64,000 bases of DNA from Limnohabitans sp. (GCF_044361645.1 NZ_JBIKIL010000003.1:2623-66622); one strand, 5' to 3'; positions 1,140 through 40,955 are shown, counted from the stretch's first letter. Translations and numbers: made by a program. Notes: generated by a model not told the origin, from the sequence alone.

Positions 1140-2553
1140 GTTTGGCCAAGAGAACAGCACCACCGAATTCAAACGCCAGCTCAACGATGCGCTGGAAAAA
1201 GAAGTGGTGGCTTTTCTCAATTCAGCCAAGGGCGGCGATCTGTACATCGGCGTGGATGACGACGGTGAAGTGCTGGGCGTCAGCGATGTGGATGCCCAGA
1301 TGCTGGCGATTTCTGACCGCATCCGGAACAATATCTTGCCCTCCTGCTTGGGGTTGTACGACGTGTATGCGCAGGAGCACGAGGGCAAGACCATCATTCA
1401 TGTGGTGGTGACACGCGGCACCGAAAAACCCTATTACCTCAAACGCTACGGTCAATCACCTGCAGGATGTTTCACCCGGGTAGGCAGCGGCGTGCAGCCC
1501 ATGACCACGGGCATGATTGACCAGCTCTACGCCGGGCGGGTTCGCCACTCGTTGCGCAACATCCCCGCGCCGACCACGCTCAAACTCACGTTCCAGCAGT
1601 TGAAGATTTATTACCAGGAAAAAGGCTTCGAGATCAACGACACCTTTTTGCACAACCTCGATCTTTACGTACCCGACAGCGAACGCCTGAATTACGCCGC
1701 CTACTTGCTGGCGGATACCAACAGCATTTCCATCAAGGTCGCCAAATATGCAGGCACCGACAAGTGCGACCTGATAGAAAACCAGGAATACGGCTACTGC
1801 TCACTGCTCAAGGCGACGCACCGTGTGCTCGACAAGCTCGAAATCGAAAACCGCACCCTGACGCGCATCACTGGCGCGGCAGAGCGAGAGCAACGCCGCT
1901 TGTTCAACGCTCGTGCCCTGCGCGAAGCGCTGATCAACGCGATCATCCACAACGACTACACGGCCGAGGTGCCACCGCTGGTTGAGATTTACGCCGATCG
2001 CCTCAGCATCACCTCTTATGGCGGGCTATTGAGCGGGTTGAGTCTGGAGGAATGCCTGAGTGGCCGATCCATGCCACGCAACCGTGAACTGATGCGGGTG
2101 TTTCGCGACATGGAACTGGTCGAGCACCTGGGCTCGGGCATGCGGCGCATCTTGAGCGCCTATGACAGCCACATCGTGCACATTAGCGAGCACTTTTTTG
2201 AACTGCGTTTTCCGATGGCGTCTGAAGCCCTGGCGCTTATCCCCGAAGTGGCAGAGTCAGGGGCAGAGTCAGGGGCAGAGTCAGGGGCAGAGTCGTTATC
2301 GCAAAAAATTCTGCCACTTCTTCGCGACGCCGCTTTATCCAAGTCCGAACTCTCAAGCCAATTGGGCCTTAAGTCGGTCACTGGCGCACTGAACCGCGCA
2401 GTCAACGTGCTGCTGGAAGCCCATTGGATTGAAAGAACCCTGCCCGATAAACCCCAAAGCCGCCTGCAAAAATACCGGCTGACGCAGGCGGGGTTGCAGT
2501 GGATGGATACATCTGGGAAACAAGATACGGCTGGTCGGGGTGAAAAATGCTGA
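1132..2553 (+). CDS. AlbA_2/Schlafen-domain protein with HATPase_c_4-like middle region and C-terminal winged-HTH (often annotated as RecG-like or transcriptional regulator)
   Basis: N-terminal ENSTTEFKR...EVVAFLNSAKGGDLYIGVDDDG; middle ALREALINAIIHNDY...VEIYADRLSITSYGGL and RNRELMRVFRDMELVEHLGSG; C-terminal PDKPQSRLQKYRLT. Overlaps the hsdM stop and the hsdS start. Confidence 0.82.
   Translation: MSKFGQENSTTEFKRQLNDALEKEVVAFLNSAKGGDLYIGVDDDGEVLGVSDVDAQMLAISDRIRNNILPSCLGLYDVYAQEHEGKTIIHVVVTRGTEKPYYLKRYGQSPAGCFTRVGSGVQPMTTGMIDQLYAGRVRHSLRNIPAPTTLKLTFQQLKIYYQEKGFEINDTFLHNLDLYVPDSERLNYAAYLLADTNSISIKVAKYAGTDKCDLIENQEYGYCSLLKATHRVLDKLEIENRTLTRITGAAEREQRRLFNARALREALINAIIHNDYTAEVPPLVEIYADRLSITSYGGLLSGLSLEECLSGRSMPRNRELMRVFRDMELVEHLGSGMRRILSAYDSHIVHISEHFFELRFPMASEALALIPEVAESGAESGAESGAESLSQKILPLLRDAALSKSELSSQLGLKSVTGALNRAVNVLLEAHWIERTLPDKPQSRLQKYRLTQAGLQWMDTSGKQDTAGRGEKC
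2251..2294 (+). repeat. 12-bp tandem repeat (GCAGAGTCAGGG)x3.7 encoding an AESG linker
   Basis: Copies at 2251, 2263 and 2275, plus a partial copy at 2287-2294; in frame. Confidence 0.95.
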
Positions 2554-33669: not shown

Positions 33670-34470
<801 letters not shown>

Positions 34471-34487: not shown

Positions 34488-35495
34488 CTAGACGCTGAGC
34501 AAAGCATCCAAAGGGCTGGCTGTGCCACCCGCGGCCACCTTCAGCACATGGGTGTAAATCATCGTTGTCGAGACGTCAGAATGACCCAGCAACTCTTGCA
34601 CCGTGCGAATGTCGGTGCCCGACTGCAGCAAATGCGTGGCAAACGAGTGGCGCAGCGTGTGAACGGATACGGGTTTGACAATGCCCGCAGCCGCAACGGC
34701 CTTTTTTAAGGCGCGTTGCAAGCGCTCTTCAAACAAGTGGTGGCGGCGCTCCACGCCACTGCGAGGGTCAACCGACAGCGTGGGCGAAGGAAACATCCAA
34801 AACCAGCCCCACGTATCACCTACCTTGGGGTATTTGCTAGCCAAAGCGTGGGGCACATCCACACCACCCCGTTGCACTTGCCGATCAGCCTCCCACTGCG
34901 CCCGTGCCGCCAACATTTGCAAACGCAAGGCCGGTGCCAGCGAGCGGGGCAGCATCACCACGCGGTCTTTGGACCCTTTGGCCTCGCGCACGATGATGGC
35001 CTGACGCTCAAAATCCACGTCTTTTATCCGCAAGCGCATCCCCTCCATCAGCCGCATGCCCGTGCCGTACAGCAGCCGAGCCAGCAGCGCAGTCACGCCG
35101 TCCATCTGTGCCAAAAGACCAGCCACTTCGTCTTTGGTCAGCACCGACGGAATGCGCTTGGTCTGCTGAGGTCGACCAATGTTATTGAGCCAAGGTAAAT
35201 CAATGCCCAGCACCTCCCGGTACAAAAACAGCAGAGCACTGAGCGCTTGGTTGTGAGTGGAGGCCGACACCTTGCGCTCATTGGCCAGCATGGACAAAAA
35301 AGCTTCGACATCGGCCACACCCAACTCGCGCGGGTGACGCATGCCGCCTGACTGCGTGGCGCTCCAGCGGATAAAAAAACGAATCCAATAAAGGTAAGCT
35401 TTCTCGGTTTTGAGGCTATAGTGCATATACCGAACCCGCTCGCGCACCTGATCAAGCAAGCGGGTGGACTGCAAGGAAGGGGCACCGGGTTTCAT
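34488..35495 (-). CDS. intI: Integron integrase (IntI1/IntI3-like clade)
   Basis: [22 protein letters not shown]; LLYGTGMR; KGSKDR; integron-specific insert LASKYP...W.WFWMFPS...[11 protein letters not shown]; [12 protein letters not shown]; [16 protein letters not shown]. All catalytic R-K-H-R-H-Y residues are present. Confidence 0.96.
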
Positions 35496-35508
35496 GGCAA
35501 ATTTATAC

Positions 35509-35524
35509 CTGTACAAAACCACAG
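35509..35524. promoter_or_regulatory. LexA (SOS) box CTGT-ACAAAACC-ACAG upstream of intI
   Basis: Matches CTGT-N8-ACAG and overlaps the intI -10, the arrangement established for SOS-regulated integrons. Confidence 0.85.
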
Positions 35525-35577: not shown

Positions 35578-35636
35578 GATGTATCGACTGTGCCTGGATG
35601 TATCCACCGGGTTTTGCGGTCTACATCACGTTAGGC
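35578..35636 (+). other. attI recombination site
   Basis: Direct repeats GATGTATC at 35578 and 35597 (19-bp period), then core G/TTAGGC at 35630-35636 directly before the first cassette ORF. Confidence 0.8.
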
Positions 35637-35646
35637 CTCATATCAA

Positions 35647-36168
35647 ATGTTTCCTACTTCAATGAAGCTCAGTTTCTTCACCGCTGCACTGATCGCACTC
35701 TCTGTCATCACGGGTTGCGCAACTGCCCCTGCGGACGCTCCGAAGTTTTCAGCCGCTCCTGCGGCGCCTGAGGGCTTTGCCACCGTGTACGTTTTTCGGC
35801 TGAGTGCGCCCCCATTCTCAAGAGAAATTAAGTTGAGCATCGCGGGAAAGCCGTTGTTCGCCGCCACCGAACAGGCCTATACATGGGCGTACGTTCGTGC
35901 GGGCACTCACACGGTATATGCGGAGTGGCCGACTGAACTCTTCGGAAGCAAGCAATGGCCAGATGCATCCACGACGTTAGCCCTAGAAGCCGGTAAGTCT
36001 TACTTTGTCCGCGCCCTCGGAGATGTTGGAATTGTCTCGGGCGGGTTCCTGTCGGGCGGCTCTATTGTTCGGAGGAGCGGGCTCATCGTGCTTCCACAAG
36101 AGACAGGGCAAGCACAATTGATTGCCTGTTGTCGTTACATTAAGCCCGTCCTTAGCGTCGTCGAATGA
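35647..36168 (+). CDS. Gene cassette 1: DUF2846-like lipoprotein
   Basis: Lipobox VITGC, ATVYVFR, YTWAYVRAGTHTV; bounded by GTTAGGC (35630) and its complement GCCTAAC (36170). Confidence 0.7.
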   Translation: MFPTSMKLSFFTAALIALSVITGCATAPADAPKFSAAPAAPEGFATVYVFRLSAPPFSREIKLSIAGKPLFAATEQAYTWAYVRAGTHTVYAEWPTELFGSKQWPDASTTLALEAGKSYFVRALGDVGIVSGGFLSGGSIVRRSGLIVLPQETGQAQLIACCRYIKPVLSVVE

Positions 36169-36169
36169 G

Positions 36170-36224
36170 GCCTAACGAGTAAGGATAGGTCGCGCGAAGC
36201 CGCGACCTGATCCGTTTGTTGGAC
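36170..36224 (-). other. attC site in reverse orientation relative to attI
   Basis: Minus strand reads GTCCAAC-AAACG-GATCAGGTCGCG-GCTTCG-CGCGACCTATC-CTTACTC-GTTAGGC. The extra base (C on minus, G36209 on plus) marks the plus strand as the bottom strand. Confidence 0.75.
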
Positions 36225-36437
36225 GAGCCCGGTTCTGGGCGGTGGTTTGAGCCCTACAGAAAACATCTTTTTTGTCTTGCCTGTGCGATTGAGCATTCAC
36301 ATGGCTCAAGCGATCTGACGGCGTTGCGCCTTGTGCCATTGCGGCACTTTTGGGCCCTGTGTGGCTGTTTTTGGTCGCGCACATGCTCAGTGCTTTTGGG
36401 GCACTGTTGCGCAATCCTCAAGCTGAGATCGGGATTG

Positions 36438-36908
36438 TTACTGCTTCGTGGTGGCCTGACTGTGTTGCGGTGGCGGCGCATTGGTCGATGGCAAGATTCG
36501 GCGGCGCAGCACCCTCATGGCACCGGCGCAGCACGCGCACTTCCATTGCGCACGAGGCGTGGTCTGAGATGTCGCTGATGGGGTTGCGGTGCCACTTGGG
36601 CGCTTGAACACCAGCAACTTCAGCAAGGCGATCAGCCTTTTGCTGTTCGGATGCAAGAAACCAAAGTTGCGCGCCCTTCTAAAGCCTTTGGGCAAAACAT
36701 GCTGCATCACCAGACGCAGAAACTGCGCGCCACTCACGGTGCGCGTGGTCAGGCGTTTGGTTTTGCTGTCGCGCCAACGGTAGGTGACGTTGTTGCCGTC
36801 GCAGCGCAAGATGTCCTTCTCCTGAATGACGCCCCGGTACAAATAGCGGCCCAAGTAGATGATGGCCTTGTGACCACTGCCCACACTCTTGCAATCGACC
36901 ACCCACAC
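36438..36908 (-). pseudogene. IS91-family (Y2 HUH) transposase, C-terminal remnant
   Basis: WVVDCKSVGSGHKAIIYLGRYLYRG (YxxxY), VTYRWRD, FLRLVMQHVLPKGFRRARNFGFL, C-terminal CACC..M. The N-terminal Zn/HUH part is absent. Confidence 0.82.
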
Positions 36909-36997
36909 TGCGGTTCCTCCCCGATGACGTCAGGCTGCGATTGTGGACATGGCAAGATCATTTCGACCCAATAAAAAGCGAGCGCACATGACACGCT

Positions 36998-37054
36998 CGC
37001 TAACCCGTTGCTCCATCGAACGGCTTCGTAGCCCGCTGAGTGCCAACGCTAAAC
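36998..37054 (+). other. Degenerate attC (core GTT mutated to GCT)
   Basis: CGCTAAC-CCGTT-GCTCCA...GCTGAGT-GCCAAC-GCTAAAC. Restoring GTTAAAC gives the exact complement of the next cassette's inverse core GTTTAAC (37615). Confidence 0.6.
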
Positions 37055-37382: not shown

Positions 37383-37620
37383 TTGGGCGCGCCTGAAGTC
37401 CGGTGCGGGCGAACAAAAGCCGGCCCCCGAGCACCCAGAGGCGAACGTAAAGCACATTGTTCGCGGTTTGGTTCGCAAGGGTTTGAAGCCGCTACCTGCC
37501 AAAGCATCCATTTCGCTGCGCGTGGATCAAGATGTGCTCGAATGGTTCAAGGCTCAAGGAGCGGGCTATCAGACGCGCATTAATACAGTTCTGAGGGCCT
37601 TCCGTGACGCTTCGGTTTAA
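37366..37620 (+). CDS. brnA: BrnA family antitoxin (cassette)
   Basis: TDWARL, ISLRVDQDVLEWFKAQGAGYQTRINTVLR; the stop TAA overlaps the attC inverse core. An upstream start at 37303 is possible. Confidence 0.9.
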   Translation: MKSKTDWARLKSGAGEQKPAPEHPEANVKHIVRGLVRKGLKPLPAKASISLRVDQDVLEWFKAQGAGYQTRINTVLRAFRDASV

Positions 37621-37701
37621 CAGGCTGCTCGTCACGTACACGCAGCAGCAGCTTGCCCCTGCGCGGCGCTTGTTGCGTGCCGGACAGCGCCAACTTTATG
37701 C
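37615..37701 (+). other. attC of the BrnTA cassette with dead core (GTT to TTT)
   Basis: GTTTAAC-AGGCT-GCT(C)GTC...GACAGC-GCCAAC-TTTATGC; canonical 5/6-nt spacers and extra C in L''. Confidence 0.72.
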
Positions 37702-38121: not shown

Positions 38122-38175
38122 GCCTAACGAGTAAGGACAGGTCGCACGTAGCCGCTTTTCTGTCCGTTTGTTGGC
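38122..38175 (-). other. Second reverse-oriented attC of the same family as 36170-36224
   Basis: 31/34 identity over the left part and an identical TCCGTTTGTTGG; GGACAG/CTGTCC arms; inner stem degenerate. Confidence 0.65.
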
Positions 38176-38776
38176 GTGCGCCCGGCATGGGCGCACACCT
38201 GTGGGTGCAAGTCCCGCCGCGAGCTGGTCACAGCGAGCTTGAGTGTTGCGCAACTGCATGAGGGTGACCGAGTGTGGGAAGGCAAGCGTGGCGCGTAAAC
38301 CGCGAGTCGATGAACAAAAATCGCATAGAAGGCGCTGCCAAGCAGGGCGAGCAAGCGCCAATTTGCAAAGCTCTTGTGACCAAGGCGAAGTGGCGTAGAT
38401 GCGGCGATTGTGCGGTGAAGGTGTGCGTTCTTACCCGGGGAGATCTCGCCCTACGGCTGAAAGGCCGACGGTGCAAGCCGCAAGCGAGAAGTCAGCAGAG
38501 ACCGTAGCAGTGGGCGTACGGGGTCGACGTGGCACAAAGAAATCCACGAAGGCCAAACGGTTGACGTCAATCAGGCGTTAGAGAGTGACTGAAGACATGC
38601 AAAGCCGCAAAGTCATGCGTCAGATGCTGGGGCAACCCGGGCTGGCAGGGAGGAAGCCCGGTGAAGCTGGGTGTGAGCCTGCCAGTGACGAAACTGGAGG
38701 GACGTTGCATGAGCACCCAGGCACAGGGTCAGCAAAGTCGATGGTCTTAACAGGTGGCCTGCTGGAGGCGGCGCTG
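38176..38776 (+). mobile_element. Group II intron, class C type, 5' fragment only (domains I to start of IV)
   Basis: Starts GTGCGCCCGGCATGGGCGC; GGGTGCAAGTCCCG; GTTCTTACCCGGGGAGATCT; GAGAAGTCAGCAGAGACCGTAG; IEP leader follows. No RT motifs or domain V seen. Confidence 0.8.
38597..38776 (+). pseudogene. N-terminal stub of the group II intron-encoded RT/maturase
   Basis: MQSRKVMRQMLGQPGLAG..GEAGCEPASDE...GTGS...LLEAAL, then unrelated sequence and a stop at 38812. Confidence 0.65.
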
Positions 38777-38952
38777 CTCATGCGCTGGGTAAGATGCGGT
38801 GATGACTGCTAAAAAGTTCTCAAATGCAGACACAAAGAGACTTTTGTAGGTATCCAGACAGACCATAATCTGCCTCTAACTTGGAACTTGAGAGTTGAAA
38901 GCATCAATCCCCTTTCTGAAGAAAGACTCACCACCGCCTTTGATGCGGTTTC

Positions 38953-39030
38953 GCTCAACATGGTTCATCAACCGCGAATGACGTCATCGCCGCTGGCGGG
39001 CCTTGCTGGCGCGGTGGATAAACGCTAGGT
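38953..39030 (+). other. Possible degenerate attC (core GCTAGGT)
   Basis: GCTCAAC...GTTCATCAACCGCG / CGCGGTGGATAAAC arms (12/14), then GCTAGGT just before the next ORF. Confidence 0.4.
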
Positions 39031-40554: not shown

Positions 40555-40955
40555 CCGGCACCAGTCCTAGCCAGACGCAGAATGGGTGCCCGCCGGCAAA
40601 GTCTCGGCCTTTCTCCACTGTGGCCGCAGTGGCAGTGGCAGTGGCAGTGGCAGTGGCAGTGGTCGGGCCAATGCCTGCGAACTGCATCAGTTGGCGTGAT
40701 CACACATCTTCTTTGGTGGCTTGCTCAATGTGGTGGTCATACTGCTTGACACGTTCATCCCAGAGGCTCAACTCGCTCAGTGCATCGGCTGCGTCGGTGT
40801 TGCACCAGCCGGGCAAGTCTTCGCGGTGCATGTGCGCATGGCAGCGCACAGTGGCAGCTTTCAGAGGCAGCACAATGCCCAATTCAGACAACAGTCCTGA
40901 ATGCGATGGATCAGCGCAGTGCGTTGTTCCACATTCCACATAAGCTGGGCCCCTC
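40555..40955 (-). pseudogene. IS110/IS1111-family transposase internal fragment
   Basis: VEQRTALIHRI / GLLSELGIVLPLKAATVR...EDLPGW.N...D.RVKQYD.HI...D.*SRQLM...GIGPTTATA...WLGLVP; frameshift, in-frame TGA at 40700-40702, both ends missing. Confidence 0.8.
40626..40661. repeat. Hexamer microsatellite (GCAGTG)x6 inside the IS110 remnant
   Basis: Six exact copies; reads TATATATATAT in the transposase frame. Confidence 0.95.

Follow-up and report, generated by a model that had tools for sequence, protein, structure and literature searches.

A truncated class C group II intron behind an attC-like hairpin in a Limnohabitans chromosomal integron, probably the relic of a lineage specialised for an IS91-family transposon end

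The window analysed here, a stretch of 64,000 nucleotides from Limnohabitans sp. (NZ_JBIKIL010000003.1:2623-66622), carries a chromosomal integron between hisF (33670-34470) and the hisI, HIT and tatABC genes. The integron integrase gene is located on the minus strand (34488-35522) and matched NF011946 with 460 bits (cut-off 435) and TIGR02249 with 448 bits. An attI core GTTAGGC, split as G/TTAGGC (in motifs, a slash outside brackets marks the point of division), was found at 35630-35636 on the plus strand, and the cassette ORFs (DUF2846, BrnT/BrnA, SnoaL, TacA/GNAT, and ParD/ParE) are all on the plus strand; the attI core and these ORFs therefore define the plus strand as the top strand of the array. 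The attC sites in normal orientation (36985-37054, 37615-37701, 38953-39030, and from 39490 onward) have the imperfect R' cores GCTAAAC, TTTATGC, and GCTAGGT. A strict scan of the array for RYYYAAC...GTTRRRY found a site at 36170 alone, and the normal attCs could not be defined by this pattern. Downstream of the TacA/GNAT toxin-antitoxin cassette, the hexanucleotide CAGTGG is repeated about six times (40622-40660).

Two copies of an attC-like hairpin are found on the plus strand of the array. The first (36170-36224) is free of an intron (GTTGGA/C GAGCCCGG) and well folded, with a folding z of -3.0, while the second (38122-38175) is a decayed variant with a z of -0.09, in which a 6-bp stem (GGACAG/CUGUCC) and the AAC/GTT boxes are kept. 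The sequence-only reading of this DNA had described the latter as a second copy of the former, and the alignment confirmed this: 31 of its first 34 positions match 36170-36224, TCCGTTTGTTGG is common to both, and the 16-mer GCCTAACGAGTAAGGA occurs only twice in the window, once in each hairpin copy. The 5' exon ends at 38175 with GTTTGTTGGC, and directly behind it stands GTGCG (38176-38180), which had been correctly recognised as the 5' end of a group II intron.

The GUGYG 5' end and the domain I fold assign this intron to class C. Its domain I segment (38258-38429, plus strand) matched Rfam RF02001 (group II D1-D4-3) with 100.5 bits over model positions 1-170, and a match to RF01998 in the window was weak (29 bits). 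A full-length relative of 1,879 nt was found on a metagenome contig (L179); its protein of 467 aa contains the domains RVT_1 and GIIM, and D5 and D6 are recognisable. The window intron is 90% identical to it over positions 1-581 with nothing alignable beyond, and the 3' two-thirds of the L179 intron had no match on the window's contig. What is left on the plus strand (38176-38776) are positions 1-581 of an intron of about 1,880 nt, a 5' fragment in which D1-D3 are followed by the beginning of D4. A remnant of the gene for the intron-encoded protein lies at 38597-38812 (plus strand); it has the N-terminal leader as far as ...GGLLEAAL and loses homology at about 38776, and no Pfam domain was found in this ORF. 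D5, D6, and nearly all of the protein gene, with the reverse transcriptase (RT), are absent from the window copy.

The Rfam model of domains V and VI (RF00029) had no match in the window or in the genome. In L179, D5 and D6 are evident (locus 2290-2370, minus strand) and were missed by this model as well, and across the introns compared it detected the IIC-attC introns (46-47 bits) and not the Comamonadaceae class C clade, so that its negative results for this clade are unreliable. Since the model misses L179, its negative result was set aside, and the truncation was read from the L179 alignment. The earlier claim of a class C group II intron stood, by RF02001 and GTGCG; that only a 5' fragment is present had not been mentioned there. 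Through L179 the lineage can be placed in class C, with the window copy as a dead fragment of it, able neither to splice nor to move.

The EBS1 loop GCGCCAAU has eight nucleotides (38355-38362, plus strand), which are unpaired in the consensus structure line of RF02001, and is closed by the stem GCAA (38351-54)/UUGC (38363-66). Within it, EBS1 GCCAAU (38357-38362, plus strand) pairs with IBS1 GTTGGC (38170-38175, plus strand) through five Watson-Crick pairs and one G-U pair. The complementarity of GCCAA (38357-38361) to TTGGC had been noticed before, and EBS1 had been assigned to this loop by position only; the RF02001 structure check now puts GCCAA in an unpaired loop, and the placement is borne out by a comparison of 31 introns. 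The related introns were collected from this genome and from its bacterial family, in which 35 out of 301 genomes contain them. The closing stem covaries among them (GCAA/UUGC, GCGG/CCGC, GUGG/CCAC, and GCAG/CUGC). The results showed that, of the 186 cells formed by loop positions 3-8 and exon positions -1 to -6, 154 are paired, compared to 105 +/- 6 after shuffling of the exons among the 31 introns (0 of 20000 shuffles reached 154), and that register 0 scored 128 versus at most 72 for the shifted registers. Examples of such EBS1/IBS1 pairs are CAUGAA/UUCAUG, AUGAAA/UUUCAU, AAGGAA/UUCCUU, and CAUAAA/UUUAUG.

As references for the IIC-attC introns, whose insertion rule is TTGT/T (PMC7923331), we used three introns from class 1 integron attCs (blaIMP-4, arr-2, and aadA2; L193, L194, and L203). 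Their ribozymes were compared with the window intron by Rfam alignment; blastn gave no alignment. All three have the loop GCACAAGA and an exon ending in ...TTGT/, in the same register as here. Because the register is shared, the arithmetic of the sequence-only reading, in which this intron inserts 4 nt further out than TTGT/T, is correct: the site is GTTGG(A/C)/ here and ...TTGT/ in the three references. The hairpin ends 10 nt before the site, compared to 8-10 nt in the terminator-type relatives and 7 nt in the IIC-attC references. The exact site and its recognition by a stem-loop together with a 6-bp EBS1-IBS1 helix can thus be read from the aligned sequences.

The same junction was found in relatives of the window intron. 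In L179, the 5' exon ends in ...GTTGGA and the 3' exon begins with CGAGCCCGGTTCGACGG..., running into an IS91 transposase gene on the opposite strand; the two exons, when joined, give the unoccupied junction GTTGGA/CGAGCCCGG of L053, so that the first base of the 3' exon is C. A Rhodoferax MAG (L083) has the same hairpin-intron junction. It was the only relevant hit among the matches listed for a genome-wide pattern (TTGTT, 0-8 nt, intron start), which were mostly terminator sites. Seven metagenome contigs with diverged hairpins also have the hairpin followed by GTTGGA/GTGCG. The loop is GCUCCAAU in all of the six that are long enough, and its EBS1, UCCAAU, pairs perfectly with GUUGGA. In total, the junction recurs on at least 8 further contigs.

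These contigs bear on a reading in which an ordinary terminator-targeting intron landed once by chance behind the hairpin, the GCCAA/TTGGC match being fortuitous or acquired later. Relatives with 80-86% identity do sit behind seven ordinary terminators in the same genome, and class C introns tolerate mismatches (L015, L021, and L035). A chance landing is nevertheless extremely improbable in our judgement, given a junction that recurs on at least 8 further contigs behind diverged hairpins and with matching EBS1, a window loop that is present in none of about 25 terminator-type relatives, and covariation between exon position -1 and loop position 3. The distinct specificity that had been proposed is real and recurrent, as these contigs show.

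The covariation concerns the window itself. The usual pair of the lineage is exon A with loop U, and the window has exon -1 C with loop G; the changes from A to C and from U to G together form a natural compensatory pair. A second copy in this genome, split over contigs C148 and C43, has GCCAAU facing GUUGGA, with a mismatch at -1, and is apparently intermediate between the usual state and that of the window. An IS3-like insertion interrupts this copy within the stem of EBS1; the intron is truncated, with a degenerate RT gene. The IS3-like element (C148:1-115/C43:1-291) has the inverted repeat TGAAGTGGACCCC and a 3-bp duplication AAG, and adds a fourth layer of nesting. The two genome copies are 99% identical in the hairpin and the first 180 nt and 88% identical further on, and recombination between them may blur the order of the exon and loop changes. 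That exon C and loop G are two independent drift mutations in a dead copy, restoring the same pair by chance, is of low probability.

We compared the intron-encoded proteins with those of known class C introns. With the proteins of terminator-targeting introns from the same bacterial family, those of L179 and of a further relative, L185, share 76-79% identity; with the three IIC-attC proteins the figure is 43-45%. In the maximum-likelihood tree, L179 and L185 nest in the terminator-type Comamonadaceae clade (100/99), and the IIC-attC references form a separate clade (100/100; three references only). The cassette ORFs and the intron lie on the same strand in the window and in L179, L181, L185, L186, L188, and L192. 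The lineage thus falls outside the three-reference IIC-attC clade, does not use TTGT/T, and is not oriented opposite to the cassette genes. The label of an IIC-attC lineage had to be abandoned, and the lineage appears, as measured against three references, to be an independent retargeting of ordinary class C introns and not a branch of the IIC-attC introns.

The lineage shares with the IIC-attC introns (S.ma.I2 type) the class C ribozyme, the position of the EBS1 loop, RT and X domains without an endonuclease, insertion behind a bulged DNA stem-loop on the attC-bottom-like strand, and residence in cassette arrays. It differs from them in the site, which is TTGT/T at 7 nt behind the stem with EBS1 ACAA in the IIC-attC introns and GTTGGA/C at 10 nt with EBS1 (U/G)CCAAU here. 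Moreover, unlike in the IIC-attC introns, the stem-loop here is owned by an IS91-family element, and the intron runs with the neighbouring cassette genes and against the transposase. The nearest relatives are terminator-targeting class C introns (ribozyme 75-88% nucleotide identity, protein 76-79% amino acid identity), which follow the same rule: a stem-loop, then 8-10 nt of which the last 4-6 pair with EBS1. Their IBS1 is U-rich (UUUCAU, UUCCUU, and similar) and they use many terminators, whereas the present lineage uses one IBS1 that contains G/C and one conserved hairpin. An unusual Enterobacter cloacae group IIC intron (Rodriguez-Martinez et al. 2012) is cited in PMC7923331; by that citation it is class C, non-IIC-attC, integron-borne, and co-directional with the cassette genes, as here. 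It differs in its reported insertion site, a true attC entered on the top strand.

At least 7 terminator-targeting class C copies in this genome break the assembly at contig ends (5' ends on C69, C208, C24, C132, C27, C116, and C215; 3' ends on C205, C114, C86, C70, C50, C119, C77, and C73). These copies have EBS1 AAGAAA and exons ending in TTTCTT or TTTTTT, and two of them lie directly behind a tRNA-like sequence and terminator. Elsewhere (Polaromonas sp. JS666 plasmid 2, L196, as well as L025 and L026), class C introns with EBS1 AUCGAU are inserted immediately behind a first class C intron, whose 3' end reads ...GCCGAU. The D6 hairpin of that first intron appears to serve them as stem-loop, which would give tandem introns.

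The hairpin itself has the boxes GCCTAAC...GTTGGAC, which fit RYYYAAC/GTTRRRY, an unpaired spacer, and an extrahelical G. Its plus strand follows the plan of the bottom strand of the aadA2 attC: RYYYAAC, spacer, stem, bulged G, short stem, spacer, and GTTRRRY. The second extrahelical base of the classical attC is absent. Among 15 aligned hairpin copies, 95.8% of the cells are paired, and with slid partners the share is 49% or less. Compensatory changes occur at three stem pairs, and all copies have the bulged G in the 3' arm of the plus strand. Of the two boxes, GTTGGAC is invariant and the other, which the resident cassette shares, varies; the box at the left flank has the consensus TG(A/C)nGCCT.

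The genome of this Limnohabitans contains at least 8 hairpin copies, of which 6 are intron-free and 2 bear an intron. In each of the former, the hairpin is followed by GAGCCCGGTTCTGGG... and then by an IS91-family transposase gene on the opposite strand, reached at its 3' end; these IS91 remnants break off at variable points, 100-750 nt in. In about 15 copies from other genera, the hairpin is followed by (G/A)AGCCCGG and again by the 3' end of an opposite-strand transposase gene. The linkage was counted for copies that are neither occupied by an intron nor degenerate, and all of these have IS91 sequence behind them; in intron-occupied full-length copies, the 3' exon is the sequence that otherwise lies directly behind the hairpin. 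On four contigs with four different left flanks, units of hairpin, intron, and transposon are 99.7-100% identical, and the identity starts at GCCTAAC.

The paralogous hairpin of the window is followed by the remnant of such an element on the minus strand (36225-36913), which consists of the oriIS-side spacer and the C-terminus of a Y2 transposase, of which 156 codons are kept (36438-36908). The transposases matched Pfam Y2_Tnp and Zn_Tnp_IS91 and the IS91 equivalog model NF033538 (252-326 bits, cut-off 125). The element also has a tyrosine recombinase gene upstream of the transposase gene, and its constant hairpin end lies 210-300 nt downstream of that gene. In elements that are intact or internally deleted, the far end is a terIS-like palindrome, CCGC(G/A)TAGCGGCTT(C/T)GTCC/AAC, followed by the remainder of a normal attC that ends in GTTAGGC. 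This form, CCGC(G/A)TAGCGG-CTT(C/T)GTCC/AAC, fits the IS91 paradigm, according to which oriIS lies downstream of the gene, the ends have subterminal palindromes, a tetranucleotide stands beside each cleavage site, and the bottom strand is transferred (PMC13181058, PMC6218425). The element was seen at 36170-36913 of the window, in L204 and L205, and on contigs C4, C172, and C43 of this genome (G000), where all copies are truncated. The G055 integron repeats the layout of the window, from intI through cassette 1 and the hairpin to the transposase and tyrosine recombinase genes.

Cassette 1 of the window is bracketed by a 12-nt perfect inverted repeat (GTTAGGCCTCAT, 35630-35641, and ATGAGGCCTAAC, 36165-36176), and that of G055 by a like repeat of other sequence (GTTAGGCGGCAC and GTGCCGCCTAAC). 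The repeat to the left of the hairpin is the signature of the upstream cassette's own R''. From comparison of the copies and the IS91 paradigm, the ends of the element were placed, with cleavage points deduced in this way, at RYYY/AAC and GTCC/AAC, and the element appears to enter the R'' box of attCs in normal orientation, splitting it into RYYY and AAC. The constant linkage, the identical units behind different flanks, the far-end structure, and the R'' repeats assign the hairpin to the transposon. The hairpin, including the decayed one at 38122-38175, is on this comparison the constant oriIS-side terminal hairpin of an IS91-family element, and the hairpin, intron, and transposon travel together.

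The element resembles IS91/ISCR elements, especially ISCR28, in its transposase, in a constant palindromic end downstream of the gene, as for oriIS, in the variable truncation of the other end, and in a far-end palindrome plus tetranucleotide. It is unlike them in that the oriIS-side palindrome mimics an attC bottom strand, that the apparent target is the attC R'' box, and that it has an upstream tyrosine recombinase gene and a dedicated group II intron. In the literature searched, we found none of the four (attC-mimicking palindrome, R'' target, tyrosine recombinase, and resident intron) for IS91/ISCR, nor any description of group II introns in IS91/ISCR ends. HattCI-predicted attC sites directly behind ISCR28 genes are reported in the sul4 paper, which raised passive shuffling as cassettes (PMC12772301), so that a resemblance to attC has already been seen for a related element.

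The sequence-only reading took the hairpin for a reversed integron attC. Developed fully, this would make it a bona fide attC, the intron a member or offshoot of the IIC-attC introns, and the IS91-like gene a cassette cargo. The attC-like anatomy with the bulged G on the intron strand, the location in integron arrays, an intron on the bottom-like strand like that of IIC-attC introns (PMC3001079, PMC7923331), and the attC predicted behind ISCR28 (PMC12772301) all speak for it. Against it, the hairpin puts its bottom-like strand on the array's top strand in all contexts examined, which a cassette inserted by IntI cannot do. Further, GTTGGAC is the invariant box and the one in common with the resident cassette varies, what remains of a resident attC comes behind a terIS-like palindrome at the far end, and the intron's protein and site are not those of the IIC-attC references. 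We consider this reading improbable. The claim of an independent, reversed integron attC did not survive, as IS91 sequence stands behind every non-occupied, non-degenerate copy and the hairpin moves with the element. The intron orientation does fit the attC-bottom rule, by the bulged G on the intron-bearing strand. Of the proposed attC-targeting specificity, the specific recurrent site was upheld, and its target is an IS91 end hairpin instead of an integron attC.

Two further candidates were rejected. The hairpin is not the attC of the upstream cassette, with the plus strand as top strand: the same hairpin lies behind unrelated ORFs, with IS91 sequence following at all sites that are neither intron-occupied nor degenerate, it is conserved across genera, and its bulge is on the wrong arm. 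Insertion by IntI using the wrong strand was rejected, since it would put the variable box on the other side.

Behind the intron stump of the window, we looked for a remnant of the IS91 body and found none. A possible terIS-like end lies on the plus strand at 38934-38959 (CCGC..GCGG, TTTCGCTC/AAC, then a normal attC), an assignment made on its weak likeness to the far end of intact elements. The region 38895-38982 has 75-78% identical relatives in other arrays of this genome. The 830-bp unit 38122-38959 could then be a non-autonomous, internally deleted IS91 derivative, still mobilisable in trans, with the intron stump as a passenger and not the outcome of a deletion in place. The hairpin-led units of this genome are all short (100-800 nt) whatever their content, the C148/C43 copy keeps a clear terIS motif behind its truncated intron, and a similar palindrome with AAC stands at 38934-38959. 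On the other side, the terIS-like motif in the window matches weakly, no further copy identical to this unit was found, and simple decay accounts for the same facts. We regard such a derivative as possible but doubtful; it is compatible with the explanation preferred below and would refine it.

Taken together, we consider it likely that the window holds a relic of a class C intron lineage specialised for an attC-like IS91-end hairpin, in an element lodged in an attC R'' box. The fragment at 38176-38776 would be what remains of retrohoming by a bacterial class C group II intron, whose lineage targets GTTGGA, followed by C as the first base of the 3' exon, behind the conserved attC-like stem-loop. 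By inserting at RYYY/AAC of the R'' box, the IS91 element would bring its own hairpin directly behind a cassette ORF, which accounts for the attC-bottom-like strand on the array's top strand. Recognition would proceed as in ordinary class C introns, through the upstream DNA stem-loop and a short EBS1-IBS1 helix that reaches the insertion point. The intron strand, antisense to the transposase, would be the displaced single strand of the IS91 rolling-circle model, exposing the folded hairpin to the intron RNP, and the intron would ride the transposon into attC sites. In the window, a G-type EBS1 variant may have homed to a GTTGGC variant site, or the pair may have arisen in place; everything beyond intron position about 581 and the body of the transposon would have been lost later.

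The target choice of class C group II introns is the least understood among group II introns at the DNA level; they read a stem-loop and a few base pairs. The present lineage, derived from terminator-targeting introns and fixed on one attC-like transposon hairpin, offers sites with and without the intron, full-length as well as dead copies, and a natural compensatory change at -1. With the IIC-attC introns as the first case, it would be a second and independent one in which an intron homes to an attC-shaped structure, with three nested mobile layers: an intron in an IS91-type element in an integron attC. Because the window copy is inert, the consequence for the window itself is small. An IS91 element that targets R'' would part cassette genes from their recombination sites and so would bear on the stability of cassette arrays. 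A more tentative idea, which we regard as possible but doubtful, is that the hairpin is a working dual-purpose site, both the origin-side hairpin of IS91 and a substrate of the integron integrase. If so, the IS91 element and its intron could shuttle among rolling-circle transposition, integron recombination, and retrohoming, and the lineage would be a second, independently evolved group of group II introns that target attC structures and a natural system for asking which features of a bulged DNA stem-loop are recognised by class C introns.
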